A DNA stretch of 64,000 nucleotides, taken from an uncultured Candidatus Saccharibacteria bacterium. Lineage in GTDB: Bacteria > Patescibacteriota > Minisyncoccia > Phycocordibacterales > DSPV01. Position 1 is the first letter of the stretch; each line of letters starts with the position of its first letter. The DNA lies in NCBI GenBank assembly GCA_964574355.1, contig CAZNMD010000001.1, forward strand, positions 26,180-90,179, in the 5' to 3' direction. A program made the position numbers and the translations under genes. Shown piece by piece: positions 6,189-53,090 of this stretch. The notes below the pieces were generated by a model. The model saw only the letters and a list, made by a program, of their open reading frames with translations. It was not told where the DNA came from and ran no database searches.

Positions 6189-6707
6189 ATGAAAAGATAC
6201 ATCGTTAGTGTTTGTCTGGCCGCAGCCGCTTTGTTTGCGGGGAAGTTGGAGGCGAGTGCGCAAACTTGGCATCAGCTGACTCAAAGTCAGCGAAACACGC
6301 TAATATTGGCGCAGGGCAATGTCGATAATGGAAAGATGACAAGTTATACCTGCAAGACATGGGTTCAGTTGAGGGTTATCCCCATGATTTCTGGTGGCGC
6401 AGTGACTATTCCACAAAATCGAAATAACTACAGTTGGTTTCCGGCGCCATATGTCTATGCACACCAGCAACCATTCCGTATTGAATGGTCCAGTCCTGGA
6501 CAGATTGTCCAGATGCAGGTGCCAAATAGAACCACAGGCATACTCGGTCCTCATACTGCAATTATCGCCTCATTTACGAGTTCAGAAGTAATACTTCTTG
6601 ACTGTAACTGGTACGGGGATGGCAAAGTTCAGTACCATCCTGTCGCTTACAATGACTTTTACAGGTGGGTTCAGAATTACAACTATACGGTGTACACCAT
6701 TCAGTAG
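6189..6707 (+). CDS. Hypothetical secreted protein (signal peptide)
   Basis: N-terminal MKRYIVSVCLAAAALFAGKLEASA looks like a signal peptide. An RBS GGAAGAG lies 8 nt upstream. No domain recognised. Confidence 0.55.
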   Translation: MKRYIVSVCLAAAALFAGKLEASAQTWHQLTQSQRNTLILAQGNVDNGKMTSYTCKTWVQLRVIPMISGGAVTIPQNRNNYSWFPAPYVYAHQQPFRIEWSSPGQIVQMQVPNRTTGILGPHTAIIASFTSSEVILLDCNWYGDGKVQYHPVAYNDFYRWVQNYNYTVYTIQ

Positions 6708-7769: not shown

Positions 7770-9437
7770 ATGGAAATTAATTTTTACGCGATTATTGACT
7801 GGTTAACAGCTGTAATACTCGGAAGTCTTGCCTTTGCTATTTTTCTGGGCAGTAAAAAGCACTCATCCAGAGCTTTTGTTCTAATGATATTTTTTGTGAT
7901 GATTTGGACTCTGAATGCAGGTATTCGTGCCGCGGTAATAGATTCAACGACAGCTTTATATCTGACACGGATAAGCTACTTCTTGGGCACCCTTATTGCG
8001 ACATGCTTTGTAAATTTTTTTATTGCTTATCCGGACGATAAAATATTAGGACGTAAATTAAAAATATTCTTAATCATATGTGAAACAGCTCTTTTTTACG
8101 TAATTGTACTAACAAATTATGTAATATTGAACGCTGAAAAAATTCCTGAAACCTTATTTTGGTCTTGGAATCACGGATCTTTGTGGATGGTTTTTGCTGG
8201 ATATTTTTTTGGTTGCTGGACGGCCGGTCTTGTTGTTCTTTTTAAAAAATACAGAGTATCAACTGAAAACGAAACAAAACATAACCTCAAGTTTATGTTT
8301 TGGGCATTACTAATTGGAATAATTCCACCCTCTTTTTTTAATATAATTCTACCAGCCGCTGGCAGTTATCAGTTTGATTGGCTTGGACCACCAACGGGTT
8401 TGATTTGGATTATTATCATTGGTTATTCAATTGTAAAATATCGCCAAATGAATGTTCGCGTTGTTGCCGCCGAAATTTTTACATTTTCAATAATTACAAT
8501 CTTTTTTCTAAACATTTTTACCGACTTTCAGTTGGGGATCTTAGGGAGAGTTATATTTTTTGTGACATCAATAATTCTTGGATATTTTATTATCAAAGGA
8601 GCCTTAGCAGAAAGAGATCAAAAAGAAACTCTCACATCCTTTAATAAGACCCTAAATGAAAAAGTAGCCGAGCAAACAGTCGAAGTTAAAAGAGCCTATG
8701 AAGTTGAAAAGAAGGCTAATCGAGAATTAAAGCAAGTAGACCAAAATAAAAATGATTTTATTTTGATTACCCAACACCACCTTAGAACTCCGCTCTCACA
8801 AATCAGATGGTATTCTGATTCTATTATAAATGGTTTGTATGGTGATATTTCTGTAGAACTTGGTGAAGTAATTTCTAAAATTGACAAAGCAGCAGAAAAA
8901 CTCACAAAGACATTAAATGATTTTTTAGCTATTACTCAGTTAAAAATTGGAACAAAAGTTTTAAATGTTCAGCCCATAAATCTTAAAGATGTTATCGAGA
9001 CAGTCCTATATGATCTTTCAAGCGAGATAAAAAGAAAGAAAATCACCGTTAGCTTTCCAGCTAATGATAACCATTGGCACCTTGTTTCAGCCGATTCCGA
9101 TAGAATGAAAGATGTTTTTGCAATAATTTTGGATAACGCTATTTTGTACAACCACCAAGAGGGTGGGAAATTGAGGATAAGCACAGAACAAAAAAATGGT
9201 ATTCTGATAGTGAACGTTGCGAACACAGGCATAGGCCTTAGTAAAATCGATAAATTGGGTTTGTTGAAGCAAAGTTTTTATAGGTCAAAAGAAGCGAAAA
9301 AAGTAAATCCGTCTGGTATGGGGGTAGGATTATTGGTAGCTAAAACAATTGTAGAAGCACATCATGGAAGTATTGTACTTGAATCAGATGGGGTAAAGAA
9401 AGAAGTAAAAATTGAAATAAAACTTCCGATAGCGTAG
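7770..9437 (+). CDS. Sensor histidine kinase with N-terminal multi-pass (7TM-like) membrane domain
   Basis: About 8 hydrophobic helices in the first 270 aa, an H-box ITQHHLRTPLSQI, and HATPase_c N/G boxes (…GMGVGLLVAKTIVEAHHGSI…). No receiver domain. Confidence 0.85.
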   Translation: MEINFYAIIDWLTAVILGSLAFAIFLGSKKHSSRAFVLMIFFVMIWTLNAGIRAAVIDSTTALYLTRISYFLGTLIATCFVNFFIAYPDDKILGRKLKIFLIICETALFYVIVLTNYVILNAEKIPETLFWSWNHGSLWMVFAGYFFGCWTAGLVVLFKKYRVSTENETKHNLKFMFWALLIGIIPPSFFNIILPAAGSYQFDWLGPPTGLIWIIIIGYSIVKYRQMNVRVVAAEIFTFSIITIFFLNIFTDFQLGILGRVIFFVTSIILGYFIIKGALAERDQKETLTSFNKTLNEKVAEQTVEVKRAYEVEKKANRELKQVDQNKNDFILITQHHLRTPLSQIRWYSDSIINGLYGDISVELGEVISKIDKAAEKLTKTLNDFLAITQLKIGTKVLNVQPINLKDVIETVLYDLSSEIKRKKITVSFPANDNHWHLVSADSDRMKDVFAIILDNAILYNHQEGGKLRISTEQKNGILIVNVANTGIGLSKIDKLGLLKQSFYRSKEAKKVNPSGMGVGLLVAKTIVEAHHGSIVLESDGVKKEVKIEIKLPIA

Positions 9438-9477: not shown

Positions 9478-10701
9478 ATGCACAACTCAGATATTAAGGG
9501 TGTTCTTTCATTTATTGAAAAGAATATTGAATATCCAGACTTTACTCAAATAACAGGCGCTTCTACCAACCCCGAAATCATTGTTAAAGATCAAAAGAAA
9601 CTGATTTTTTGCTCAAATAACTATTTGGGTATTGCAACTGATCCGCGCACCAAAGAAGTGATGCACCAAGCGGTTGATACCTATGGTATGGGATCAGGCG
9701 GCTCTAGATTAGTCTCTGGAAGTACCGACGTACAAGCTCTGCTAGAGGCTAAAATTGCCTTATTTAAAGGGCAACCGGCGGCAATTACGTTTTCAACAGG
9801 TTATATGGCGAATACCGGTATTATTCCTGCCCTCATGCAGCCTCCGGGTAGTTCAACCTTAAATTACCTTAAGAATTTAACTATTTTGAGAGATAAGGCT
9901 GCAATTATCAGTGATGAGTTAAATCATGCAAGTATTGTTGATGGTATTCGACTTTCAAAAGCTGAAAAGTTTATTTACCCTCACCGTGATATGGAAAAAT
10001 TAGAGCAACTTCTCGATAAGGTTAAAAAATACAAATACAAAATGGTAGTGACTGATGGAGTATTTAGTATGGATGGTGACATCGCACCTCTTCCGGAAAT
10101 AATAAATCTAGCTCGAGCATACGACGCTACCGTTATGGTTGATGATGCACACGCAACAGGAATTATCGGAAAAACAGGTAGAGGGACCTCTGAACATTTT
10201 GAATTAAAAGATGAACCTGATGTGACAATGGGCACATTCACAAAAGTTTTTGGTGGGGTAGGTGGGTATGTGGTTGGCTCTGAAGAGCTAATCAGGTATT
10301 TAAGAGTAACCGCAAGGTCATACATATTTTCTGCACCAATCCCACCTGTCATTGCCGCAGGACTCGTGAAATCAATTGATATTGTTCAAAATGAGCCATC
10401 GTTAAGGCTCCGTTTATGGGAAAATGTTACATATCTGAAAAATTTACTGCTTGAATATGGTTTTAACACTCTTGGCAGCGAAACTCAGATAATGCCGATT
10501 TTTATTGGTGATGAAAAAAAAGCTATCGCTGTTTCGAGGCGGTTACTGGAACTTGGTTTTTATATTGCTTGTGTACGTTGGCCGGCAGTCTCTAAAGGAC
10601 AGAGCCGACTTCGTCTTACCTTAATGGCTCACCATACCAAAAAACAGATTGATTCACTTATTCATGCTCTTGTGCGAGTAAAAAACGAATACTCTTTTTA
10701 A
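9478..10701 (+). CDS. PLP-dependent acyl-CoA:amino-acid C-acyltransferase of the AONS/BioF/Kbl/CqsA family (class II aminotransferase fold)
   Basis: GSGGSRLVSGST motif, PLP-lysine motif GTFTKVFGGVGGYV, and VDDAHATG. Overall it is collinear with 8-amino-7-oxononanoate synthase-like enzymes. Confidence 0.85.
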   Translation: MHNSDIKGVLSFIEKNIEYPDFTQITGASTNPEIIVKDQKKLIFCSNNYLGIATDPRTKEVMHQAVDTYGMGSGGSRLVSGSTDVQALLEAKIALFKGQPAAITFSTGYMANTGIIPALMQPPGSSTLNYLKNLTILRDKAAIISDELNHASIVDGIRLSKAEKFIYPHRDMEKLEQLLDKVKKYKYKMVVTDGVFSMDGDIAPLPEIINLARAYDATVMVDDAHATGIIGKTGRGTSEHFELKDEPDVTMGTFTKVFGGVGGYVVGSEELIRYLRVTARSYIFSAPIPPVIAAGLVKSIDIVQNEPSLRLRLWENVTYLKNLLLEYGFNTLGSETQIMPIFIGDEKKAIAVSRRLLELGFYIACVRWPAVSKGQSRLRLTLMAHHTKKQIDSLIHALVRVKNEYSF

Positions 10702-10706
10702 TCAAC

Positions 10707-11732
10707 ATGAAATACAGTGATCTTTTTAAAAAGTATCTCGCAATAAAAAAAAGTACAGGTGCAGTGTTTTACGATTCACATGTTCACCCGTTTGAAGTAT
10801 TTGGGTTAAAAAAAGAAGGTAAAGAAATAGAATTACCGGTAAACTCATCCACTTTTTCTCCAACTCTTTTAGAAAAACTTAAATTTAATGACGTTTCTTT
10901 ACTTATACTTCAAGGATTATTTCGATTTTTTCCGAAATATATACGAGGAGAAATTCGAAAAAGCTATCGACCATCTGGAGATAAAATATTACAAACATTA
11001 CTTTCGAATGCTGGTATAGACAAAGCAACACTCGTACCCATTTATCCAGAGGCGTCACCCCATGATATTTATAAAGTATTTACTGATAAGACAGCTATAA
11101 GGCTGGGCTCAGTAAATTTTTCATTATCGGAAACAGAACTTATACGAGATCTTGAAAACCAACTAAGTACCTATAAGATTCGAGGAATAAAACTGCATTC
11201 AAATATTCAGTCTTTTTACCCCAATCCAAGCGAGAATGAAGAACTTCTTGCTTTAAAATTACGCGCCACGTACAACTATGCCGAAAAAAACGGACTCTAT
11301 CTCTTATTTCATGGTGGAAGATCGTTTATTCCCGAAAACAGTATTTTTCAAAAAAAAGAATTTGCATTACCTAAACACTTTATTACTGCATTAAAAGAAT
11401 CGTTGAATACAATTAGGGTACCCATTATCATTGCACATTTGGGAGTTTATAACATTCCTAGTCCCCACATAGATGACCTGCGGCCACTTATAGAACATGA
11501 TAATGTGTATTTTGACACCGCAGGTGTAAACCCAAAACATGCTGTCAATTTTTTGAAGTTATATGGCTCAAAACGCTTGATCTTTGGCTCTGATGCTCAA
11601 TATTTTAATTGCAAGCATGCGGTAGTACTGCTTCTTGGAGCACTGAATAAATTTAATCCTAGTGATTTTGAAGAAAACGTCTTAAATGTTTTTAGCACCA
11701 CATATGAACATCTCATTTTAAAGACCAGCTAG
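10707..11732 (+). CDS. Amidohydrolase-2 family (TIM-barrel metal-dependent hydrolase)
   Basis: N-terminal DSHVH metal-binding motif, internal conserved His residues (IKLH, HGG, IIAHLG), and C-terminal FGSDA typical of PF04909-like enzymes. Confidence 0.6.
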   Translation: MKYSDLFKKYLAIKKSTGAVFYDSHVHPFEVFGLKKEGKEIELPVNSSTFSPTLLEKLKFNDVSLLILQGLFRFFPKYIRGEIRKSYRPSGDKILQTLLSNAGIDKATLVPIYPEASPHDIYKVFTDKTAIRLGSVNFSLSETELIRDLENQLSTYKIRGIKLHSNIQSFYPNPSENEELLALKLRATYNYAEKNGLYLLFHGGRSFIPENSIFQKKEFALPKHFITALKESLNTIRVPIIIAHLGVYNIPSPHIDDLRPLIEHDNVYFDTAGVNPKHAVNFLKLYGSKRLIFGSDAQYFNCKHAVVLLLGALNKFNPSDFEENVLNVFSTTYEHLILKTS

Positions 11733-11735
11733 CAT

Positions 11736-13322
11736 ATGCAATATATAATCCTTTTTTTTAGTCTCATAAATTTACTACTGGGTATTATTGTATTAATGCA
11801 TAGTAAACATGAACGAGACAAAGTATCTTTTCTTGCGTTTGCTCTCGTTGCAAGTTTTTGGACTTTTAATAATTTTTTACTCCGACTTAGTCCTGACGTA
11901 GCAACAATTAGAATTTCTTATGGTCTTGGACTTACAGTAGCAACATTCGGACTTATTTGGACATTCTTTTTTCTTAAGAAGAACTTACCGAAACTGGTTA
12001 AATTTGTCATTGTTCCTATTTCGGCACTCTTCTTCTTTATCACTCTCTTTAGCGATACGATCGTCTTAAGTCTCCGATCAGTTGAAACACTTGGGTATGA
12101 GGGTTCATTAGGATCACTTTTTTACCTGTATTCCTTCTATATTTCGCTTGTTTTTCTTTCAATTATTGGTGTTTTGTTTAATGAATATCGAACAACAAAC
12201 GATACCGAAAAGAAAAAACAAGTCGGAACAATTCTCGCAGGAGCTCTATTTTTTACTGCAGTGTCATCAATTGTTAGTTTTGTTATCCCAATCTTTTTTC
12301 AAACGTTACGATTTACAATACTAGACAATTTCAGCTTCTCTATTTTTCTTGGATCAATCGTGTACACAATCCTTAGACACAGATTTTTGGATATAAAAAT
12401 CGCAGTTACTGAAATCTTCACATTTCTCCTTTGGGGACTACTTCTCATGCGCGTTATTTTATGGACAGATCTTAACGATTTTCTTGTTGGTTGTGTAATA
12501 TTAATTTCTAGTGTTATCTTTGGAATCTTTTTAATTAGAAGTGTGCTAAGTGAAATTTCTCAACGAGAACATATTGAAAAACTTGCCGGAGAACTCTCTA
12601 AAGCTAATACGCGACTCAAAGAAATTGATAAACAAAAATCGGAATTCGTCTCCTTTGCCAGCCATCAATTACGCTCACCTCTCACGGCCATAAAGGGTTA
12701 TGCATCAATGATTCTTGAAGGTGATTTTGGTGCCGTTACTGACGGTCTCAAAGACGCCGTCGAGAAAATTTTTGAATCATCAAAAACACTTGCGAATGTG
12801 GTTGATGACTACCTCAATATTTCTCGTATTGAACTTGGAACAATGAAATATAATTTCATACCGCTTGATTTACGAGAGCTTACAGAAAATGTCATTGGCG
12901 AATTAAAACCAAACTTTGAAAAAGCTGGCGTAACGCTTTCTTTTGCTTGCGACACATCACAGACGTATCGAGTAAATGCTGACCCAGATAAACTAAAACA
13001 AGTTATTGCCAACATCATTGATAACTCGATGAAATACTCACCTAAAGGTGCTTCAAAAATTAGTGTTTCGCGAGATGATACTCGAAAAATTGCCCGTTTT
13101 GAGATCAGCGATAACGGAATTGGAATGTCTTCCGTTACACTCGCAAAACTCTTCAACAAATTCACACGAGCTGATAATGCCAATCAGACAAATATTCGTG
13201 GAACCGGTCTTGGCCTCTATGTTGCGAGAGATATTATTGGCGCTCATAAAGGTAAAATTTGGGCAGAATCAGATGGTGAAGGGAAGGGTTCAAAATTTAT
13301 TTTTGAGTTAGCTCTTATATAA
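11736..13322 (+). CDS. Sensor histidine kinase, paralog of 7770-9437 with multi-pass membrane domain
   Basis: About 8 TM helices, a shared AxEIFTF motif, an H-box ASHQLRSPLTAIKGY, and an HATPase_c domain (GTGLGLYVARDII). No receiver domain. Confidence 0.85.
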   Translation: MQYIILFFSLINLLLGIIVLMHSKHERDKVSFLAFALVASFWTFNNFLLRLSPDVATIRISYGLGLTVATFGLIWTFFFLKKNLPKLVKFVIVPISALFFFITLFSDTIVLSLRSVETLGYEGSLGSLFYLYSFYISLVFLSIIGVLFNEYRTTNDTEKKKQVGTILAGALFFTAVSSIVSFVIPIFFQTLRFTILDNFSFSIFLGSIVYTILRHRFLDIKIAVTEIFTFLLWGLLLMRVILWTDLNDFLVGCVILISSVIFGIFLIRSVLSEISQREHIEKLAGELSKANTRLKEIDKQKSEFVSFASHQLRSPLTAIKGYASMILEGDFGAVTDGLKDAVEKIFESSKTLANVVDDYLNISRIELGTMKYNFIPLDLRELTENVIGELKPNFEKAGVTLSFACDTSQTYRVNADPDKLKQVIANIIDNSMKYSPKGASKISVSRDDTRKIARFEISDNGIGMSSVTLAKLFNKFTRADNANQTNIRGTGLGLYVARDIIGAHKGKIWAESDGEGKGSKFIFELALI

Positions 13323-13324
13323 AT

Positions 13325-13774
13325 ATGCCGAAAGATTTTTCATATGGTGTAATTCCCGTATACAAAGGAGAAGGCGGGGTCGTTTCTGTACTCATTGTTG
13401 CCAAGGGAAAAAAGGATGGGGAAAAATGGTGGGGTTTTCCAAAAGGACACCCAGAATCGACAGATAAAACGATACGAGAAAGCGCCTTACGGGAATTCAA
13501 AGAAGAAACTGGTCTTATTCCTACCTTTTTGGGTGAAAAAGAATACTTTGATCACTACATCATTGAACGTAACGGAGAGTTAAAAGATAAAACGGTCACT
13601 TATTTTGTGGGCATCGTAGACACAACAGAAGTAACCATTGATAAAGAAGAACTTGATGAATACCGGTGGGTACCAAGCAACCTTGTCGATCATTTTCTTA
13701 CTCGAGACTCAACAAAATCTATGTACTACCAAGCAGAACATGAAGTAGAAAATATCGGTATAAAAACCACTTAG
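13325..13774 (+). CDS. NUDIX hydrolase
   Basis: Nudix box GFPKGHPESTDKTIRESALREFKEETGL (GX5EX7REUXEEXGU). Confidence 0.8.
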   Translation: MPKDFSYGVIPVYKGEGGVVSVLIVAKGKKDGEKWWGFPKGHPESTDKTIRESALREFKEETGLIPTFLGEKEYFDHYIIERNGELKDKTVTYFVGIVDTTEVTIDKEELDEYRWVPSNLVDHFLTRDSTKSMYYQAEHEVENIGIKTT

Positions 13775-13776
13775 CC

Positions 13777-15168
13777 TTAGTCTAATTTGCCGTGAAGATA
13801 CGAGGAAATTTCAGAAATTTTTATTCGTTCTTGTTTCATTGAATCACGGTCGCGAATTGTCACACACTCATCTTTTTCAACAGTATCAAAATCAACTACC
13901 ACACAAAAAGGAGTACCTATCTCATCTTGTCGACGATATCGTTTACCAATGTTTCCATTGTCGTCATACATCACTCGACCAAACTCTTTTTTCAATGCTT
14001 TAAAAATAGCTTCAGCTTTCTCAACCAAAACAGGTTTATTACGAAGAAGTGGAGAAACAGCAACTAGTACAGGAGCTACTTTTGGTGAAAAGCGCATAAC
14101 GACACGTTCATCACCTTCTTTTACAACCTCTTTTGTATAAGCACTCGAAAGAACCGCCAGAAGAGTTCTATCTAAACCGAATGAAGGCTCGATACAATGA
14201 GGAATAAACCGTTCCTTGGTATCTTCGTCCAAATAAGACAAATCCATGCCGCTATCGCGTCCGTGGGCGCTTAAATCGTAATCTGTACGATAAGCAAGAC
14301 CATACAACTCTTTGCGACCAAAAGGGAAGTCGAATTCAAAATCAATAGTACGTTTACTATAAAATGCACGGTCAGCATCAGAAATTTCGTTCTCATGAAC
14401 GTTATTTTTTTGTATACCGACATCAGCATTAAACGCATGAACTTCTTTTACAAAATCATTGAACACTCTTTCCCACTCTTTTGGATTTACAAAATATTCA
14501 ATTTCCATCTGCTCAAACTCACGCGATCGAAATGTAAAATCACGTGGAGCAATTTCATTTCGAAAAGCTTTACCAATTTGAGCCAAACCAAAAGGAAGTT
14601 TCGGATGAAGGGAATCCATCACATTTTTGAAATTCACAAACATTCCTTGGGCAGTTTCAGGTCGAAGATACGAAATTGATGTTTCATCTTGCATCGCTCC
14701 AACATGTGTTTTAAACATCATGTTAAATTGACGAACCTCACCAAGCAGATTACCTTCAGGACTTTTAATCCCCTTTTCTTTAATAATTTTTGCCATATCC
14801 TCAAGCTTCATTCCCCGAACATCAATTCCAGCATCTTCAAGAAGGTGGTCTGCGCGATACCGCTTACCAGTTTTCATATCATTAACAAGAGGGTCAGCAA
14901 ACCCACCAACATGTCCTGTTGCTACCCACACCTTCGGATTCATTAAAATAGACGCATCCACGCCGTACATATCGTCACGATCAAGCACAAACCGTTTCCA
15001 CCACAATCGACGTATATTTTCTTTTAAAGAAACACCGAGGGGACCATAATCCCATGTTCCAGCTAAACCACCATAAATTTCAGAGCCTTGAAAAATAAAA
15101 CCTCGACGCTTGCATAATGAAACAAGCTCTTCCATTACCTGATTTTTTTCTTCGGTTTTCTTTGCCAT
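13777..15168 (-). CDS. glyQS: Glycine--tRNA ligase (dimeric GlyQS type)
   Basis: N-terminus …RRGFIFQGSEIYGGLAGTWDYGPLG and class II motifs are those of the dimeric GlyRS. Confidence 0.95.
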   Translation of the reverse strand: MAKKTEEKNQVMEELVSLCKRRGFIFQGSEIYGGLAGTWDYGPLGVSLKENIRRLWWKRFVLDRDDMYGVDASILMNPKVWVATGHVGGFADPLVNDMKTGKRYRADHLLEDAGIDVRGMKLEDMAKIIKEKGIKSPEGNLLGEVRQFNMMFKTHVGAMQDETSISYLRPETAQGMFVNFKNVMDSLHPKLPFGLAQIGKAFRNEIAPRDFTFRSREFEQMEIEYFVNPKEWERVFNDFVKEVHAFNADVGIQKNNVHENEISDADRAFYSKRTIDFEFDFPFGRKELYGLAYRTDYDLSAHGRDSGMDLSYLDEDTKERFIPHCIEPSFGLDRTLLAVLSSAYTKEVVKEGDERVVMRFSPKVAPVLVAVSPLLRNKPVLVEKAEAIFKALKKEFGRVMYDDNGNIGKRYRRQDEIGTPFCVVVDFDTVEKDECVTIRDRDSMKQERIKISEISSYLHGKLD

Positions 15169-45344: not shown

Positions 45345-45932
45345 TTACTCCAAACGGACACTCACCGTACGTTTTGTGAGCATCGAAGGACGAACGAGGA
45401 GAATCGTTACGACAATGCTTTCGATCACAAAAAAGGTGATCGGCTGAGCAGCATCTGCAAAGGTCCACCGCGGAATGGCGATGACGGCACAGAAACACGA
45501 CAACCAAAAAAGAGTCCACGCCAACTTGTTTTCCCGAGCTGGATCTTCCCACGCAGATTGAAAAGTTGGAAGCGCACCGATAAACAGAGCAACTTGTGCA
45601 ACTCCGATTCCAAAATTTGCCTCCTTGAAAACCACCCAAAGAACAATGGCAAACGCAGCGCCAACAAGACACAGCTTATCGAGCTTCGTCCAGCCAGGTG
45701 TTCCGTGCATGATCGCGAGTACAACAACAATCCATACTCCGATAACGGCTCCAATAATCTGGCCATTGACCGTACCTTTTGCATACATACCAGCAAACGT
45801 AACAGTATCCAGAACTCCCCAGATAACCCACGAAGCCTTGGCAGGCTTCGTTGTCTTTTGAAGAATGGCAAGAATGTATGGAACGAAAGCAACAAGAACC
45901 AACAAGCCCGCAATGAATGACAGCGTTTTCAC
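45345..45932 (-). CDS. Hypothetical polytopic membrane protein (GC-elevated)
   Basis: 5–6 TM helices, a GTG start with an AAGGAAGAG RBS, no domain recognised. Two alternative-frame ORFs overlap it, a sign of high GC. Confidence 0.55.
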   Translation of the reverse strand: MKTLSFIAGLLVLVAFVPYILAILQKTTKPAKASWVIWGVLDTVTFAGMYAKGTVNGQIIGAVIGVWIVVVLAIMHGTPGWTKLDKLCLVGAAFAIVLWVVFKEANFGIGVAQVALFIGALPTFQSAWEDPARENKLAWTLFWLSCFCAVIAIPRWTFADAAQPITFFVIESIVVTILLVRPSMLTKRTVSVRLE

Positions 45933-47217: not shown

Positions 47218-47430
47218 TTACTCATTTGAATTTATAAGTGCATCAATTGCGGCAAGACGCGCAGTTTGATTTTCAATTTCATCCCTTTTTTCAGCAGCTA
47301 ACAACTCACCAAGTGCCTGCACGTCAGACGGAGGAAGCACATCAAGCCGTGCAATAAGGTCACCTTTAAGCTCGTGACTAAAAAGTCCACTCCATCGTAT
47401 TAAAACTGAAAGCGCTTCTTTTTTAGTCAT
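47218..47430 (-). CDS. Hypothetical small protein, translationally coupled to 47423-47977
   Basis: 8-nt ATGACTAA start/stop overlap with the upstream gene. 70 aa, helical, no domain recognised. Confidence 0.5.
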   Translation of the reverse strand: MTKKEALSVLIRWSGLFSHELKGDLIARLDVLPPSDVQALGELLAAEKRDEIENQTARLAAIDALINSNE

Positions 47431-47977
47431 TATTTTTTACTTGGTTTGCTTCAGGTAAAAATACTGAAACGGCTTCATCTATTTCCTCTTGATGGGCCTT
47501 ATATGTTTCATCATCTAATTTCATTGTCTCCCGCAAAGATACAAAGGCATCGTGTATAGCTTGCTTATCACCTTTAAAAAATTGATAGAGCGTTTCGTAC
47601 AAATGAGACGGCATAGCGCCTCCAACAACTTCGGTTGCTTCTGTTGCAAGTGCTCCAGCAAGAGGAACATCTGGTGTTAAAAAATTCAACCGTCTAAACC
47701 AGCGCAACTTTGCCAACGACTTAAACGCATCAGCACTCCAAGAACCAGTCTCTCCAGCGACCGGAACAATATCAAGAAGACTGATCCCCGTATTTGCCAT
47801 CGTACGCAACAAAGCCTTTCCCCCTTTTTGAATTGAAGGATTTCGCAAAAGCATTTCCCACTTTGAATACGTCACCGCATACTCTCCAACAAGTTTCGGA
47901 GGAATTTCTTGCGGACGTTCTAGAGAAGCCTCCCATTCATTTTCATTCGCTATTTCATTTTTTGGTATAGATTCCAT
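47423..47977 (-). CDS. Hypothetical protein (first gene of a two-gene operon)
   Basis: 184 aa, no domain recognised. GC-elevated. Confidence 0.55.
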   Translation of the reverse strand: MESIPKNEIANENEWEASLERPQEIPPKLVGEYAVTYSKWEMLLRNPSIQKGGKALLRTMANTGISLLDIVPVAGETGSWSADAFKSLAKLRWFRRLNFLTPDVPLAGALATEATEVVGGAMPSHLYETLYQFFKGDKQAIHDAFVSLRETMKLDDETYKAHQEEIDEAVSVFLPEANQVKNND

Positions 47978-48229
47978 GAGTTATATCTCTATATTACGTT
48001 GATTCAATCTCGGTGAAAAGCATCGTATTACATCAACTGCCCAAAGGGGTAAAGAGTGGAGAAAATATTCGTCTGTTACCTTGGTTTGTTAATAAAAAAA
48101 TACAACAACAGATACGAGCTCAAAATTGACATATATACTATTTTATGCTAATTTAATAGTAGACTGCACCTCTCCATGAAAAGTCACGTAGGGCCGGAAA
48201 CCTTACATGATGAGCCGGAAGCTCCCTGG

Positions 48230-48241
48230 CATGTGCACATG
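48230..48241. promoter_or_regulatory. Perfect 12-bp palindrome CATGTGCACATG 16 nt upstream of ATG 48258
   Basis: Seen directly. It is preceded by the direct repeat GCCGGAAAC / GCCGGAAGC and a TTGACA at 48124. Confidence 0.35.
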
Positions 48242-48257
48242 AAAGGTACCTCACAAC

Positions 48258-48875
48258 ATGACGACGAAGCAAACAGAGTTTGAAATAGTGAAATATTTTC
48301 TCAAACACAACAGCTACGGGCAGGCACGGATTCGAGCCGTTCACGCCAACGTTGTTGCGCGTCGACAGTTCGGACAGAGCCTACTGATCACATTGTTGGG
48401 CATCTTCGTAGCATTGGTGGGAACACTCATCAACAACGCTCCCCAGATTCCCCACAATGTAAGAATCGGAGAAGTGCTCTTCGCACTTGGCGGAGGTTTA
48501 ACTATCCTCTTTATAATCCGTGGCGTAATCAAGCTCTACAATGTGCGCAGCGGCTGTGATTACGAAAACGGTGCTTGGGAAGATGGCCTCCAAGATATTC
48601 TCGAAACCATCAAAACCTTCGAGAAACTTTTCGGAAAACGTCCGGAAAAACTTGGCCTTCAGGGAACAGCCCGTTTCCTTACCCATGAAGCAGGAACGAT
48701 CCTCCGCCTGAACGCGCAACGACGAAGTCCGGAAGAACTTATTTTGCGCAAACGCTTCAGGGACATGCACGATGTGGCAAGCAAGCTCATGCCAATGTCG
48801 AGCTACGAGGAAATCTACCACGCTGCCCAAAACAAGCAGCAACGACCAACCTTCATTCCTGGTTTTACCAGCTGA
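48258..48875 (+). CDS. Hypothetical two-TM membrane protein (GC-elevated)
   Basis: 205 aa with two hydrophobic helices. No domain recognised. Confidence 0.5.
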   Translation: MTTKQTEFEIVKYFLKHNSYGQARIRAVHANVVARRQFGQSLLITLLGIFVALVGTLINNAPQIPHNVRIGEVLFALGGGLTILFIIRGVIKLYNVRSGCDYENGAWEDGLQDILETIKTFEKLFGKRPEKLGLQGTARFLTHEAGTILRLNAQRRSPEELILRKRFRDMHDVASKLMPMSSYEEIYHAAQNKQQRPTFIPGFTS

Positions 48876-49247
48876 CGTGGTCTTGATGCCTCATTGTTCT
48901 TTAGAACGACACAGCAACCCTACCCTAAACCGGTGGGGTTGTTTTTTTGTTTACGTGAACCTACGGGGACCGCTCCGCGTATCGATCCTTACAGGATCAG
49001 TACAGGTTTCCCATTTTTTCACCATCAGAATGGCTCAAAAATATGGGAGAACCTTTTCGATTCCTACAGGGAAACGCGGAGTACCGCTTTCGGTCAGGAA
49101 TATTTTATTCGCCGTCGCTCATAAAATTTCCCGACCCGGACTCGCGCTTCGCCCAAGCTTGGGCTCAAGGCACTCCGTCTTTCGATTCCCCGTAGCGTCT
49201 ACAAAAATATAGTCGGCCAATGCTTCGCGCTGGCCTCATTATTTTTG

Positions 49248-49319
49248 TGACCCTACGGGGAATCGAACCCCGATTTAAGCCTTGAGAAGGCTCTGTCCTA
49301 ACCGTTAGACGATAGGGCC
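49248..49319 (-). tRNA. tRNA-Glu (anticodon CUC), CCA not encoded
   Basis: Cloverleaf read by hand: acceptor GGCCCTA/TAGGGTC, D-arm GTCT/GGAC, anticodon stem GAGCC/GGCTT with loop TTCTCAA (anticodon CTC), T-arm CGGGG-TTCGATT-CCCCG, discriminator A. Confidence 0.88.
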
Positions 49320-49371
49320 ATATCTGAATAAAAAAATAATAGCTTAAAATAATGCCTTTATCAAGATGGAA

Positions 49372-49400
49372 TTGACATTTGCCAATATATTTGTTATTAT
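49372..49400 (+). promoter_or_regulatory. Promoter TTGACA-N17-TGtTATTAT upstream of 49468
   Basis: -35 at 49372-49377 and -10 at 49395-49400. An AAGGAG RBS lies 8 nt before the ATG. Confidence 0.5.
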
Positions 49401-49467
49401 TTTAAATAGAGGTTGATATCACTTCAACCGCCCTAAACAGTCACCACACAGGTGACAAGGAGTATAG

Positions 49468-49890
49468 ATGAAATTGAAATTGATGATGCCGGCAATCTAC
49501 AAATTGACTAGGTGGTCGGCAAACGAGGCAAATGTTCAGGTACCAAAGGCAAGGATATGGGGATGGCACAGAGTTGACGACCTCATTGAAGTCGTCAACA
49601 ACATCCGAGAAGAAAAGGGGCTTTCCCCTTTAACCCCGCAGCAAATGGGGGAAACATACCTTCTCAAGGATCTGCCGATCGACCAGGAAGCGATTCCTGA
49701 GGCTCGCAGCTGGTGCCACCCGTTGTGTTTCGCAATGGAGGATCCCTCGGATGGGACATTCTATCCAACCCTCATGAACTGTCATCCAACATTTTGGCTC
49801 CACCATCTGAAAGAAGACTACAAATGGTGTAAGGACAAATTTGTCCCAGCCGGAGTCGGCATGGCCCTCATCAAAATGGTGAAAGCTTAA
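49468..49890 (+). CDS. Hypothetical Cys/His/Trp-rich protein
   Basis: 140 aa with good promoter, RBS and terminator. No domain recognised. Confidence 0.55.
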   Translation: MKLKLMMPAIYKLTRWSANEANVQVPKARIWGWHRVDDLIEVVNNIREEKGLSPLTPQQMGETYLLKDLPIDQEAIPEARSWCHPLCFAMEDPSDGTFYPTLMNCHPTFWLHHLKEDYKWCKDKFVPAGVGMALIKMVKA

Positions 49891-49904
49891 GGCTAGCACC
49901 GCAC

Positions 49905-49945
49905 CCCGCTCTCGATTCAATCGAGAGCGGGTTTTCTTTTTTATT
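49905..49945. terminator. Bidirectional terminator (CCCGCTCTCGA-ttcaa-TCGAGAGCGGG + T-run)
   Basis: 11-bp perfect stem followed by TTTTCTTTTTTATT. Confidence 0.85.
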
Positions 49946-49973
49946 ATACTCTCTCACTTCCCCTTTTTTATTC

Positions 49974-51272
49974 TTACCTTCTCCCCCACTCTTCTTCTTG
50001 TCTCACTAAAACATCTTTTGCTATTTTTGGATCAGCTAACAGGGCAGCTGAAACGCGTTCCATTCGAGCACCTTGAGAACCTTTTACTAAAACAACATCA
50101 CCTTTTGCAACAATCTTTGAAAGATATTCTGCTGCCTCTGCTGAATTTGAAAAAAAGACAACGCTTTCTTTTGCTTTTCCAGATTTAAGTAAAGCTTCCC
50201 CTGCTCCACGTGCTCGTAAACCAACAGCGACAAATAAATCTACAAATGTCGCTTCTTTGCCAATTGCTTCATGCTCAGCAATTGAATATTTTCCAAGTTC
50301 GAGCATGTCACCAAATGCAACAATTTTTCGCCCCTGTACCGTAAGGCTCGACAAGGTATGCAACGCTTCTCGAGCGGCCACCGGAGATGAATTGTAACTA
50401 TCATCAATGATCACTGACCCCTCTTTACCTTCCAATAGCTTCATTCTTCCCGGAGGAGACACGTGAGTAGCCAGACGATCAGCGGCTTTACGAATATCAA
50501 AGCCGGCAGCTTTTGAAGCGGTAAGTGCGGCTAAAAGTGGATAGGCATGATGTTTACCAAGCGACCCTTTATAGGTCATAAAAAAAGATTCCCCTCCTGA
50601 TAAAATCTTCATTGAAAAACCAACTGGATAGCGCCGCCCATCTTTTTCTTCATAAACCACCTCATACGTTTCTGCACGAACAGTTACCCCCTCAGAAAAT
50701 CCATACGTGAGCATAGAAACACCTCGCTTCTTCACTCCATCAATAATCAATGGATCATCTCCGTTCGCGATAACGGTTCCGCCTTTTTGAAGTGAGTCAA
50801 CCAAGGAAAGTTTTTCTTCCACAACCTTTTGTGGCGAAGAAAAATATTCAACATGTACGGGAACATTTGGAAGACGCGTCAAAACAACCATATGCGGTTT
50901 AACCCAGGAGGCTATTTTTTTAATATCACCTGGCCGGTCAGCCCCAACCTCAAGCACAACCCACTTTGGATAGGTCGTAAAACCAAAAATAACCTTAAGA
51001 CCTTGAAAAATATTTACCGTCCAGGCAATAGGATCGCTCCAAGCGTTTTTAAGACCAAGAATAGTAAGAGGCACACCAATCTCACTATTAAAAGATTTTT
51101 CACTTTTTCGCGCCTGCACAAAACCAGAAAACGCAGTAAAAACTGCGTCTTTTGTTGAGGTCTTTCCAACACTACCGGTAACTGCAATAACTGATGGCTT
51201 AAACCTTTTTAAAACCGCCCGTGATTCTGCTTCCAAAATCGTGGCGATTACTTTCTTAAAAACAGCCTTCAT
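49974..51272 (-). CDS. murF: UDP-N-acetylmuramoyl-tripeptide--D-alanyl-D-alanine ligase
   Basis: Mur ligase P-loop AVTGSVGKTSTKD and MurF-type domain order. Confidence 0.9.
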   Translation of the reverse strand: MKAVFKKVIATILEAESRAVLKRFKPSVIAVTGSVGKTSTKDAVFTAFSGFVQARKSEKSFNSEIGVPLTILGLKNAWSDPIAWTVNIFQGLKVIFGFTTYPKWVVLEVGADRPGDIKKIASWVKPHMVVLTRLPNVPVHVEYFSSPQKVVEEKLSLVDSLQKGGTVIANGDDPLIIDGVKKRGVSMLTYGFSEGVTVRAETYEVVYEEKDGRRYPVGFSMKILSGGESFFMTYKGSLGKHHAYPLLAALTASKAAGFDIRKAADRLATHVSPPGRMKLLEGKEGSVIIDDSYNSSPVAAREALHTLSSLTVQGRKIVAFGDMLELGKYSIAEHEAIGKEATFVDLFVAVGLRARGAGEALLKSGKAKESVVFFSNSAEAAEYLSKIVAKGDVVLVKGSQGARMERVSAALLADPKIAKDVLVRQEEEWGRR

Positions 51273-51348
51273 AGATATGGAATAAATATATCAGATGAAT
51301 GGCTATTTTCATTGTGCATTTTGATTCGAATCTCTACCTCATCATACA

Positions 51349-51377
51349 TTGACTAAGCTACATTATTATGTTAATAT
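51349..51377 (+). promoter_or_regulatory. Promoter TTGACT-N17-TAATAT upstream of 51441
   Basis: The hairpin TGCAAC-aggtaaa-GTTGCA (51408-51426) lies between the promoter and an AAAGGA RBS. Confidence 0.45.
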
Positions 51378-51440
51378 TCTACTTAGAGCACTCATACGTG
51401 CACCCTTATGCAACAGGTAAAGTTGCATCAATAAAGGACA

Positions 51441-52130
51441 TTGATAATGAATACATTGGGTCTTCCCCAATTGATGGATAAGTCGTACTTCGACAGCGTC
51501 AGCCAGCTGATGAGGAAACAAGGTCTTCGTGAGTTCGCTCGCGTCGCTATCAGCACAGATGATGTGCGGTATCACGTTTTAGCATCAATTGCTCGGAGCA
51601 CCTCACTCTTCTTCTTACTCTCGCAACGCGCCTTCATGGTACAACTCACTTACACCGAGAGTAACCACGAAGACGAGCAGGAAAGACTGTACTATACCGG
51701 AAAACCTCCACAGGGGGTGCACGGGCATTGGAGCATACACTTCTACCATAAGTTCCTGGAGTACGGTAAACTTCTGGATCGAGTAAAACACCTAGATCAC
51801 GAATGTTGGGACGATGAATTGGCAAAAGTGCCTTTTCACGGACACGGTCCGAAATTCTCTGGGTTTCAGTGGTACGGAAACAAATACGAAGAACCTGGTC
51901 AAAATCCACAAGGTCTCGACCTTGGGAGATTAGCACAAGAAATAGGCTACAATACCTACCTCTGTGCCGACTGGCTCGCGGGCCCACAATTCGACGACCT
52001 TCAAGTCACATGCTTCCCTCCGTACTACACGTTCCCCGGATGTGAAAACATCTTCTGGGATCGGTTCGGAAGGCACAACCTTCGGCCACTCATCAAAAAG
52101 GCTTGGGGTTCGGAAGGACTCAGGAGATAA
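51441..52130 (+). CDS. Hypothetical protein (GC-elevated, His/Trp/Tyr-rich)
   Basis: 229 aa with no recognisable domain. Its own promoter and terminator. Confidence 0.55.
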   Translation: MIMNTLGLPQLMDKSYFDSVSQLMRKQGLREFARVAISTDDVRYHVLASIARSTSLFFLLSQRAFMVQLTYTESNHEDEQERLYYTGKPPQGVHGHWSIHFYHKFLEYGKLLDRVKHLDHECWDDELAKVPFHGHGPKFSGFQWYGNKYEEPGQNPQGLDLGRLAQEIGYNTYLCADWLAGPQFDDLQVTCFPPYYTFPGCENIFWDRFGRHNLRPLIKKAWGSEGLRR

Positions 52131-52153
52131 CTGACTCTTTTCATTTCAGTTCA

Positions 52154-52183
52154 AAGCCGCAGAGCAATCTGCGGCTTTTTTAT
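52154..52183 (+). terminator. Rho-independent terminator (AAGCCGCAGA-gcaa-TCTGCGGCTT + T6)
   Basis: Perfect 10-bp stem. Confidence 0.85.
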
Positions 52184-52251
52184 TGACAAATATACTTATA
52201 TATGATAAATTTTCTAGCAGGTAAAGTTCCTCGAAATTAGATTTCTGCACT

Positions 52252-52300
52252 TCGTCATAGCAGAGAGCAGCTAACTACTTAGCATTTCTCTGCTATGACG
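52252..52300 (+). promoter_or_regulatory. 14-bp perfect inverted repeat CGTCATAGCAGAGA…TCTCTGCTATGACG enclosing the ATG of the 52295 ORF
   Basis: The arms lie at 52252-52265 and 52287-52300. The 21-nt loop contains the mini-hairpin GCTAA-ctac-TTAGC, and the start codon lies inside the 3' arm. Confidence 0.5.
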
Positions 52301-52882
52301 AAATCAAACGGTTTCTCTGGCAAACGTTTACTCAAACGTTTCAAAACAGAGTACGTATGGCGACAACGTCACCGCCTAGTACATATGCAACCAATCATTC
52401 AGTTTTACTGGCAACTCCTCGAGCACTGCAGGAATGACATTGGAGGAAGTATACTCACACAAGGAATTCTTTCTTTGGCAAAAAAAGCAAAACCCTCGTG
52501 GATAGCGACCGAGGAAAATGTCCGCCTTGTGAGGGAGTGGTACCTTGATAGCAACGAGCTCAACTCGGGAACCAACGCAAAAGAAAAACGTCTCACCGCC
52601 CACAAGCTGATGCTGGACTTGTTGGCGGCGGCCTTCAAAGACCTCTCTCCTCTCAAAAATCCTGCGGCAATGGCACTCTTTTTTGAGATCAAGCAAGCGT
52701 TTTGTCTGCCCGAAGATGTCTTTGTATGGGCACGGAATATCAAGCAGCGCGAAGATGGTAGTGGAGTCATCATTCTCCACGTAAGTGATGTTGATACATT
52801 CAGACGCACTATGGAGGCCGGGCGGATGGGTGTCAGAGGTCGAACCCTCGAAAAGGTTCTGCTCATCGATGGATCAGAGTAA
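52295..52882 (+). CDS. Hypothetical protein (GC-elevated)
   Basis: 195 aa with no domain recognised. Two antisense ORFs of >130 aa overlap it, which reflects high GC. Confidence 0.5.
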   Translation: MTKSNGFSGKRLLKRFKTEYVWRQRHRLVHMQPIIQFYWQLLEHCRNDIGGSILTQGILSLAKKAKPSWIATEENVRLVREWYLDSNELNSGTNAKEKRLTAHKLMLDLLAAAFKDLSPLKNPAAMALFFEIKQAFCLPEDVFVWARNIKQREDGSGVIILHVSDVDTFRRTMEAGRMGVRGRTLEKVLLIDGSE

Positions 52883-52905
52883 TCAATTCCAAAATAAAAA
52901 GTTAC

Positions 52906-52938
52906 AACCCCAAGCTACGCGCTTGGGGTTCTTTTTTA
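52906..52938. terminator. Terminator (AACCCCAAGC-tacgc-GCTTGGGGTT + CTTTTTTAT)
   Basis: Perfect 10-bp stem. Confidence 0.85.
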
Positions 52939-53090
52939 TATTCCGAATATTGTGTCGTCATTCCGATGGCGCACCTTAGGGTAATTTGGTGCGAGGCTTT
53001 TGTACTAGAGAATGTAACGGAGGCCGATGAGGCCGAGTGTAGGGCGGCGCGAGCACGCGACGACCCGCATTCTCTGGTGCAAAGGCCGAG

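Follow-up and report, generated by a model that had tools for sequence, protein, structure and literature searches.

A candidate family of small, gene-less insertion elements behind tRNA genes of Parcubacteria/Patescibacteria

tRNA genes are targeted by elements that rely on tyrosine integrases, namely islands, prophages and integrase-less CIMEs, whose attL and attR sites form a direct repeat of the tRNA 3′ end that brackets the insert and leaves the tRNA intact. The T-loop is reportedly a classical crossover sublocation of such elements. The locus described here, an insert of 292 bp behind the tRNA-Glu(CUC) gene of a 64-kb window (the whole stretch of DNA that was analyzed), resembles them in this bracketing, in a boundary at the T-loop, in tandem accretion at the tRNA and in the occurrence of empty sites in relatives. 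It is unlike them in that the inserts of this family are only 100–290 bp long and carry no gene, contain a regular inverted copy of the target and conserved tandem G·A hairpins, and have no integrase in the scanned vicinity. MITEs, REP/BIME and Correia repeats are likewise small, non-coding and highly structured, are closed by inverted termini (in our insert, the inverted and direct copies, which pair), and lie at the 3′ ends of transcription units, beside terminators. Here, however, the termini reproduce whichever target is at hand and so differ between Glu and Tyr sites, the duplication spans 13–20 nt, there is one copy per 64 kb and no transposase family is implicated; the constant terminal inverted repeats, short duplication and many copies that mark a MITE are not the properties of this insert.

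Two further groups of described systems come close. Like the insert, functional tRNA 3′ trailers and tRNA-like RNAs (3′ETS-leuZ of E. coli, YrlA, mascRNA) immediately follow the 3′ end of a tRNA, are on its strand and have no promoter of their own, and the closing helix of the insert copies acceptor and T-stem strands. There is no sequence or Rfam similarity to 3′ETS-leuZ, YrlA or mascRNA, though, a terminator-like hairpin intervenes here between tRNA and insert, and the presence/absence pattern and tandem copies are typical of insertions. Integron attC sites show strand bias and conserve structure while their sequence varies. Together with the attP site of CTX phage, they resemble our locus in the order of parts, in structure being kept over sequence and in strand-specific conserved mismatches; they differ from it in that we found no integron integrase, attI or cargo genes here and that the target is a tRNA end instead of dif or attI.

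The only tRNA gene of the window, placed by ARAGORN at 49247–49319 on the minus strand, encodes tRNA-Glu(CUC), scores 61.8 bits as an Rfam tRNA and has a sigma-70-like promoter (TTGATA-17-TATTAT, 49364–49336, minus strand). Its last 21 nt (49247–49267), running from the T-loop to the 3′ end, are repeated nearby in both orientations. The repeat search paired a direct copy at 48947–48969 with 49239–49261 (23 nt, 83%, spacing 292), the core of which, GTGAACCTACGGGGA at 48955–48969, is identical to the tRNA end (49247–49261) at 14/15 positions. An inverted copy at 49181–49206 is 85% complementary to 49242–49267 over 26 nt, 35 nt apart, and its core, TTCGATTCCCCGTAGCGTC at 49181–49199, matches the tRNA end at 18/19 positions. 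Near-match searches covered the whole 64 kb on both strands. With up to three mismatches, the tRNA-end 21-mer occurred at these two places only, for an expectation of 0.00 in 100 shuffles; a 14-mer with up to two mismatches occurred only at the tRNA and at 48955–48968 (whole-window expectation, 0.11). The original prediction had described direct and inverted copies of the tRNA-Glu 3′ end and had made its case depend on their significance in alignment; both points are confirmed, the copies being unique in the 64 kb, with its coordinates 2–4 nt off. A third, weaker pair in the middle of the insert, in which TTTCGATTCC at 49055–49064 overlaps CCTACAGGGAAACG at 49063–49076, was absent from it. A direct repeat of the tRNA 3′ segment therefore brackets the insert at both ends.

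The stretch between the tRNA-Glu gene and the far end of the direct copy (48955–49246, 292 bp) is non-coding and holds no gene. We found no promoter inside it; that of the tRNA, located upstream in the same orientation, reads into it. Following the tRNA strand from the promoter side, the features are these:

49247–49319, minus strand: tRNA-Glu(CUC) gene (ARAGORN; Rfam, 61.8 bits; sigma-70-like promoter).
49203–49246, minus strand: spacer from the tRNA end to the inverted copy, with an A-run at 49240–49246, the hairpin GGCCAGCGCGAAGCATTGGCC at 49215–49235, which contains GCGAAGC, and a T-run at 49203–49211 (from the sequence).
49181–49202, minus strand: IC1, the tRNA 3′ end in inverted copy; tRNA-strand sequence, GTAGACGCTACGGGGAATCGAA (repeat search; core 18/19; unique in the window).
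49139–49179, minus strand: P2, GAC-G-GA-GUGC...GCGC-GA-GUC, in which a stem is followed by an internal loop of tandem G·A, (G)GA/GA, and by another stem that varies at its tip (motif table of seven elements; covariance model).
49092–49136, minus strand: P3, GGTCGGGAAATTTTAT-GA-GC-GACG-GC-GA-ATAAAATATTCCTGACC, a long hairpin, tipped by GACG, that contains a tandem G·A loop (12-mer common with the L004 elements).
49076–49087, minus strand: small hairpin GCGGTACTCCGC (repeat search).
49063–49075, minus strand: DR1, degenerate middle direct copy, GTTTCCCTGTAGG (repeat search).
49056–49070, minus strand: IC2, second inverted copy, CCTGTAGGAATCGAA, overlapping DR1 (repeat search).
48984–49054, minus strand: module 2, a hairpin at 49004–49054 and the hairpin GATCCTGTAAGGATC at 48984–48998, with GGAAACCTGTACTG before it (comparison with L002).
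48955–48969, minus strand: DR2, outer direct copy, with which the insert ends on its far side; tRNA-strand sequence, TCCCCGTAGGTTCAC (repeat search; 14/15; unique in the window).
48913–48943, plus strand: terminator of the convergent gene 48258–48875, abutting DR2 (terminator scan).

With this build, the 292 bp are an organized element and not debris. IC1 can pair with the tRNA 3′ end to give a long hairpin, H0, capped by a terminator-like stem, and can alternatively pair with DR1 or DR2, which would close P2–P3. The spacer, which would form the apex of H0, looks like a weak bidirectional terminator; its hairpin failed a strict terminator scan, and strong hairpins with an A-run, a GC-stem and a T-run occupy the equivalent position in the related loci L001, L002, L005, L020 and L049. 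The small hairpin with DR1 and IC2 (49056–49087) is the boundary between modules 1 and 2: the first module of L002 and that of L004-B end like the one in the window (GTGACCGATTCCCCGT and GTGACCGTTCCCGGTA). Both modules of the window recur in L002 in unchanged order, with GGAAACCTRTACTG ahead of a covarying hairpin; L002 shares GGAAACCTATACTG with the window and has it, with the covarying hairpin TCCATGTAATGGA, in front of its last direct copy. The predicted fold of the insert lies far below shuffles in energy (z = −7.2). We give about even weight to the view that the insert is one composite, two-module copy of a small, GC-rich, non-coding insertion element.

The best relatives of the window are metagenome genomes of Parcubacteria/Patescibacteria, in many of which a tRNA-Glu(CUC) gene is kept directly 3′ of murF. 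We obtained closer relatives through MurF homologs and, throughout the loci collected, checked every tRNA against the sequence on either side of it. A recurring order was seen 3′ of the tRNA, on the tRNA strand: a hairpin with an A-run, a GC-stem and a T-run, the inverted copy, a GC-rich body of 100–220 nt and the direct copy. This architecture stands behind tRNA-Glu in six distant Parcubacteria contigs (L001, L002, L004, L006, L020 and, loosely, L016), and L004 holds two elements in tandem, A and B, with a direct copy at the end of each. In L005 and L024–L026, which are from one species, it stands behind tRNA-Tyr(GTA) and the copies match tRNA-Tyr; here the direct copy includes CCA, and the tRNA-Tyr gene lacks it. 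In all of these tRNA-flank elements both the inverted and the direct copies match the tRNA of the local genome. Across the family the inverted copy corresponds to the T-loop, T-stem and acceptor 3′ strand of the tRNA in the reverse complement sense, and in L001, L004-B, L006 and L020 it is split into acceptor strand, hairpin and T-stem strand. The left edge of the direct copies is constant across elements, at the last nucleotide of the T-loop or adjoining it. The elements are richer in GC than their hosts (0.589 vs 0.427 in L020, 0.50 vs 0.409 in the window). The inverted copy, which the original prediction had taken for a scar, is thus a regular part of an element family.

Not every member sits behind a tRNA. 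In L057, P2–P3 lie behind a protein gene and the outer hairpin stem pairs with sequence just past the stop codon, while L049–L054, six contigs of one population that span the flank and are identical there, carry hairpin units in tandem without tRNA-end copies. Taken together, these loci indicate that the hairpin modules are the constant part and that the target copy changes with the site. The lack of clear tRNA-end copies in L049 and L057 also means that the repeats are not universal, and we counted this against an insertion, as we did the presence of one copy only in the 64-kb window.

The flank of the tRNA varies among relatives in the way expected of an insertion site. L003 and L020 (MurF identity, 72%) form a clean pair of empty and occupied sites: 148 nt plus a 19-nt repeat are inserted in L020 and the same 26–28-nt flank follows, the 28 nt past the L003 tRNA matching the 26 nt past the direct repeat of L020 (91% over 47 nt with the repeat counted in). 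The tRNA of L003, L021 and L022 is identical to that of L020 and L006 and has no insert. Moreover, L043, L044 and L046, which are closer to the window (murF, 58–59%), have the tRNA and no copies. L006 and L020 harbor different element types at the same site, with murF 3′ ends 85% identical, and the tandem elements of L004 are of two different types; L043 bears a 4-kb restriction-modification island at the tRNA 3′ flank, and in L034 and L012 the anticodon loop of this tRNA is the site of other rearrangements, with half-tRNA fragments. The 3′ flank of the tRNA is an insertion hot spot. Both the hot spot and the presence/absence polymorphism among relatives had been anticipated by the original prediction.

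That prediction read the repeats as degenerate scars of repeated integration and excision. Spelled out, this reading would make them decayed attL/attR sites of conventional integrase-bearing islands or prophages that were later deleted, with meaningless leftover DNA between them. The direct copy does behave as an att-type duplication with its left edge at the T-loop, and the variable flank, the island of L043 and the half-tRNA fragments of L034 and L012 agree with such a history. The leftover part of the reading fails: the intervening DNA is ~85% identical over aligned positions across genomes whose murF proteins are 43–50% identical, its architecture is fixed and its hairpins covary, and it recurs at 100–290 bp in at least seven independent genomes. 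Remnants of random deletion would give neither this recurrence nor a regular inverted copy, and we consider decayed att sites very improbable. We looked for an integrase, as the prediction had proposed, and found neither an integrase nor another recombinase in the selected ORFs of 33.7–64 kb (~15 kb on each side of the tRNA), where Pfam returned housekeeping families and unassigned ORFs; the same scan contained no integron integrase. Recombinases were also absent among the annotated genes of L041–L046 and L049–L060. The element had no phage match by blastn against 50,697 phage records, and a viral-contig scan with GGGAATCGAAAGACGGAG gave 0 matches. The tRNA-end 21-mer matched two giant ‘viral’ contigs.

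The core of the element is formed by P2 and P3. P2 starts directly past the inverted copy (…GGAATCGAA). A stem of 3–5 bp comes first, then a bulged G (optional) and GA; another stem, variable at its tip, leads to a further GA, and the closing strand completes the hairpin. Its outer stem covaries in the motif table of seven elements: GAC/GTC in the window, L002 and L004-B, CGCC/GGCG in L004-A, CGGC/GCCG in L001, AGTCT/AGACT in L006 and GTCTC/GAGGC in L005, with CGGC/GCCG in L020 by inspection. P3-type hairpins have the form N3+-GA-GC-loop-GC-GA-N3+; the 12-mer GAGCGACGGCGA is common to the window and both L004 elements, inside outer stems that differ and remain complementary, and related hairpins occur in L020, L006, L005 and L057. 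The motif GGRRKYGAA-N2-7-(G)GAGY occurs 10 times in ~0.6 Mb on both strands, always within elements. Since MAFFT alignments of whole elements were too poor for covariation analysis, we relied on anchored motif tables and on a small covariance model, R1, built from five cores. R1 scores 58.3 bits at P2 of the window and, beyond the sequences it was trained on, detects L001 (33.7 bits, E 6e-6) as well as a site in L057/L058 that had not been seen before (26.4 bits, E 4.5e-4). In its alignment, which is a small sample, 91.7% of cells are paired vs 19–38% with partners slid, and AU, GC and CG are all seen at one pair.

The cores are also far more similar than their hosts. Window and L004-B agree at 83/98 aligned positions (z = 11), while the nucleotide similarity of their murF genes extends over 30 nt at 83%; for L004-A and L020 the figures are 77/91 aligned positions (z = 14) and 146 nt at 66%. 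Cores are thus ~85% identical where murF hardly aligns, which is at odds with remnants of repeated integration and excision, and the similarity of the elements is incongruent with that of the host genomes, as judged from these sequence comparisons. Patescibacteria have tiny genomes with little non-coding DNA. That a non-coding module of 100–290 nt is kept at ~85% while essential genes have diverged too far to be aligned readily as nucleotides must reflect either strong selection or movement between lineages.

In a rival explanation the insert would encode a structured RNA that is resident at the locus: transcription of the tRNA would continue through the weak hairpin and give the transcript a functional, non-coding 3′ trailer, with the inverted and direct copies as closing strands that mimic the acceptor/T-stem stack of the neighboring tRNA. 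The repeats would then be pairing partners, the patchy distribution would reflect gain and loss, and the RNA could, for example, borrow tRNA-processing enzymes or switch pairing between the tRNA end and its own 3′ end. Consistent with a trailer, tandem G·A hairpins strongly favor one strand of the elements, with 28 on that of the tRNA vs 3 on the other (composition-preserving shuffles: mean 9.7, maximum 22, 200 trials), the P2 outer stem covaries, no internal promoter is present and the tRNA promoter reads in, and the split inverted copy of L001, L004-B, L006 and L020 looks tRNA-like. The window, L001 (z = −7.4) and L016 (z = −6.4) fold far below shuffles; the closing helix of L016 depends on 9 G·U pairs and loses much of its strength on the opposite strand; and this non-coding sequence is far better kept than murF. 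Conserved junction nucleotides with variable, covarying stems are what long-term selection on a functional RNA would leave, and not a recent transfer, and we counted this against an insertion. On the other side, a terminator-like hairpin with a U-run separates tRNA and element in most relatives, the element is wholly missing from closer relatives, related genomes have unlike element types at one and the same site, and in L004 A and B stand in tandem. L005 and L006 are no more stable than shuffles, the independent sequences number only 6–8, and Rfam gives no match. Stems contain G·U vs A·C in a ratio of only 30 vs 18; assignment of the strand by these counts was dropped as not decisive. A trailer RNA is possible, in our judgment, though on the unlikely side.

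We also compared the core with known RNA classes. Nothing but tRNA reached the gathering score in Rfam 15 at E ≤10 (window 47500–50500, L004 2800–3237, L049 4300–5130), so that neither self-cleaving ribozymes nor other families were matched in the regions searched, and at the gathering threshold six relatives likewise gave no family besides tRNA. tmRNA, RNase P, group I/II introns and hammerhead were dropped by inspection, and ARAGORN finds no tmRNA. In sequence, P2 does not fit a kink-turn or box C/D-type motif, in which a bulge of three nucleotides precedes tandem sheared G·A pairs: its tandem GA/GA comes with a bulge of 0–1 nt. TIGR-Tas had been a lead because it involves Patescibacteria, K-turn-type RNAs and pairing to both strands. 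TIGR arrays consist of two alternating 8–12-nt repeats with 9-nt spacers beside a Nop-domain Tas gene (PMC12045711); we rejected this candidate, as the window has no such array and the Pfam scans (33.7–64 kb) no Nop-domain protein.

Our best reading, held with roughly as much doubt as confidence, is a family of small, non-autonomous insertion elements, or tRNA-trailer RNA modules, behind tRNA genes of Parcubacteria/Patescibacteria. The mobile unit would comprise a copy of the last ~20 nt of the target, the terminator-like hairpin, the inverted copy, P2 and P3, and it may enter by a single recombination inside the T-loop-to-3′-end segment of the tRNA gene. This crossover would pair off the last ~20 nt of the tRNA with that arm of the long hairpin which matches them, the element being on circular or incoming DNA. 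A crossover there would leave the tRNA intact, ending in the element's copy and followed by the element's hairpin, and the original 3′ end would be displaced to become the far-side direct repeat. Each new arrival would again use the intact tRNA and shift earlier copies away from it, producing tandem arrays. Because the element has no protein gene, it would have to be moved in trans, perhaps by a tyrosine-type recombinase encoded elsewhere or by homologous recombination, for which the conserved tRNA would serve incoming DNA as an anchor. This single-crossover scheme is the simplest that covers the direct copy, the intact tRNA, the hairpin with its inverted copy, the arrays and the empty sites. 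That the inverted copy tracks the target (Glu vs Tyr) is beyond simple integrase chemistry, and we counted it against an insertion. The conserved hairpins may act as RNA, read through from the tRNA promoter, or as folded single-stranded DNA.

Folding of the DNA itself is the basis of another explanation, in which the insert would be a single-stranded recombination site or cassette by analogy with integron attC or CTX-phage attP: its tRNA-end hairpin would mimic the double-stranded end of the tRNA gene, and a Xer-like or integron-like tyrosine recombinase of the host would join it to the chromosome. The order of parts (target, spacer, inverted copy, body, direct copy) is what integration of a folded hairpin might be expected to give, and strand bias and conserved structure with variable sequence are shared with attC sites. 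In L004 a direct copy and the inverted copy that follows it are joined by a perfect 15-bp palindrome around GCGAAGC. As DNA, d(GCGAAGC) forms a mini-hairpin of unusual stability, and the motif lies at the hairpin apex in the window and L004-A, but in only 3 of ~10 apexes overall. Moreover, no recombinase is linked to the element and the bodies are just 100–250 nt without cargo. The integron core sites RYYYAAC/GTTRRRY are matched by the tRNA-Glu copies (ACCCTAC/GTAGGGT) at only 6/7 positions each, which may be chance, and by the tRNA-Tyr element not at all. We regard this explanation, which is entirely inferential, as improbable.

Returning to the insertion family, the feature is akin to known tRNA-flank insertion elements and to tRNA-trailer RNAs, and there is a real chance that it is something new in kind. 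It would be a structured RNA of a new sort, linked to tRNA 3′ ends, or else site-specific mobile DNA in a minimal form that is new. In its boldest form, which we put forward tentatively and think rather doubtful, this would be a new class of small, gene-less, structured mobile elements of Patescibacteria that install themselves at 3′ ends, mostly of tRNA genes, with complementary and identical copies of the last ~20 nt of the target. A target-matching hairpin (RNA or folded single-stranded DNA), and not a fixed att site recognized by a protein, would specify the site and allow retargeting (Glu, Tyr, the end of a protein gene). The order of inverted copy, P2, P3 and direct copy gives a model with which tRNA flanks can be searched. 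It also calls for caution, as ‘att scars’ at tRNA genes of such genomes can be organized elements. We found no described equivalent in the literature, and the family appears to consist of conserved, apparently undescribed small structured elements, not of decayed prophage scars.

Finally, we examined the surroundings of the insert. One side holds a division/cell-wall cluster (mraZ, rsmH, ftsI and a Mur ligase named MurF by the sources) and the other yqeY, rmuC, recR, dnaB and cysS. In L043 and L046 the order is murF, a gene X on the opposite strand, tRNA-Glu, homologs of ORFs 47423–47977 and 47218–47430, yqeY and rmuC. ORF 48258–48875 of the window, which has two database relatives only, is the ortholog of gene X (identity 31% to L043, 24% to L046 and 60% to L040), and we rejected it as cargo of the element because its ortholog adjoins the same tRNA in these three loci. 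The window has it on the opposite flank of the tRNA, and the place that X takes in L043/L046 is filled by an unrelated ORFan (49468–49890). The GC-rich block at 48150–49250, which had been proposed as what is left of an element, is real (GC 0.492 against 0.409 on average in the window, at the 99.8th percentile when 1.1-kb windows are ranked), but given this switch of position it is made up of the 292-bp insert and a relocated local gene instead of element remains. The closest contig, L041 (murF, 80%), stops inside the tRNA, and the element explains why contigs break frequently at tRNA-Glu (L004, L041, L055, L056).

Half-tRNA fragments are found at tRNA-Glu in some relatives. On contig L034, which belongs to the same species as L015, an outer tRNA-Glu(CUC) at 8836-9027 has about 113 nt inserted in its anticodon, between nucleotides 34 and 35, and this interruption holds a whole second tRNA-Glu(CUC). 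The insert is bordered by CCCGCCTGCC and GGCGGGCAGG, which are roughly complementary to each other, and CCA is present in the 3′ half of the outer gene and absent from the inner one. On contig L012 (11306-11650), and likewise on L030, a tRNA-Glu 5′ half running up to the anticodon CTC lies directly behind murF, separated from a complete tRNA-Glu by GC-rich hairpins and then an assembly gap; within 100 nt, no 3′ half to match it was found.

Hairpin modules also occur without clear copies of the tRNA end. In the relatives' contigs L049-L054 (4458-4880 in L049 coordinates), a diverged tandem pair of units lies behind tRNA-Glu(UUC), each unit made of a terminator hairpin plus two hairpins; these units contain no tRNA-end copies, and one of their hairpins (GUACUUAGGCUUUUGU...) also occurs in the L001 element. 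Two further contigs of this population, L055 and L056, end inside or just after the tRNA. The core formed by the conserved hairpins P2 and P3, of the type seen in the window, lies at 6345-6500 (minus strand) of contig L057, with the same arrangement in L058, behind the gene for a 93-aa protein and not behind a tRNA. There, the core comes after a long hairpin, the outer stem of which forms pairs with the bases immediately following the stop codon; the putative direct copy downstream is a doubtful one.

The surroundings of the tRNA differ as well. The window gene at 48258-48875, fast-evolving, membrane-protein-like and tRNA-adjoining, has counterparts at 9372-9941 in L043 and 9357-9875 in L046. 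Since these lie upstream of the tRNA, whereas the window copy lies downstream of the tRNA and its insert, a local rearrangement is implied. In L043, a 4-kb island (10297-14330) encoding an HTH regulator, a cytosine methylase, a 481-aa protein and an N6/N4 methylase separates tRNA-Glu from the conserved downstream genes; it carries no repeat of the tRNA end, and L046 is without it.

The division/cell-wall cluster of the window is broken up by GC-rich ORFans (regions 51273-53090 and 49468-49890), and a further one adjoins rmuC:

51441-52130, ORF between ftsI and murF
52295-52882, ORF between ftsI and murF
49468-49890, ORF between murF and the tRNA
45345-45932, ORF adjoining rmuC

Their GC content is 0.48-0.50, compared with 0.40-0.425 in housekeeping genes, and no Pfam match was obtained for the ORFans of 51273-53090, 49468-49890 and 45345-45932. 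In most relatives ftsI and murF are neighbours; homologs of ORF 51441 are found at the equivalent place in L041 (73%) and L042 (68%). Between the convergent ORF 49468-49890 and murF, a strong hairpin with a U-run (49864-49943) matches the Rfam PyrG leader weakly, at 31.6 bits where the gathering score is 65, and is most likely just a shared terminator.

Elsewhere on L034 (946-1385), a short stretch is flanked by a tRNA-Val and by another tRNA, a weaker one that Rfam scores at 33.9 bits and ARAGORN does not call; at a guess from reading the DNA, the stretch may encode a GIY-YIG-type ORF. An annotated GIY-YIG gene (90-aa, 2132-2404) is present in L041, from another genome.
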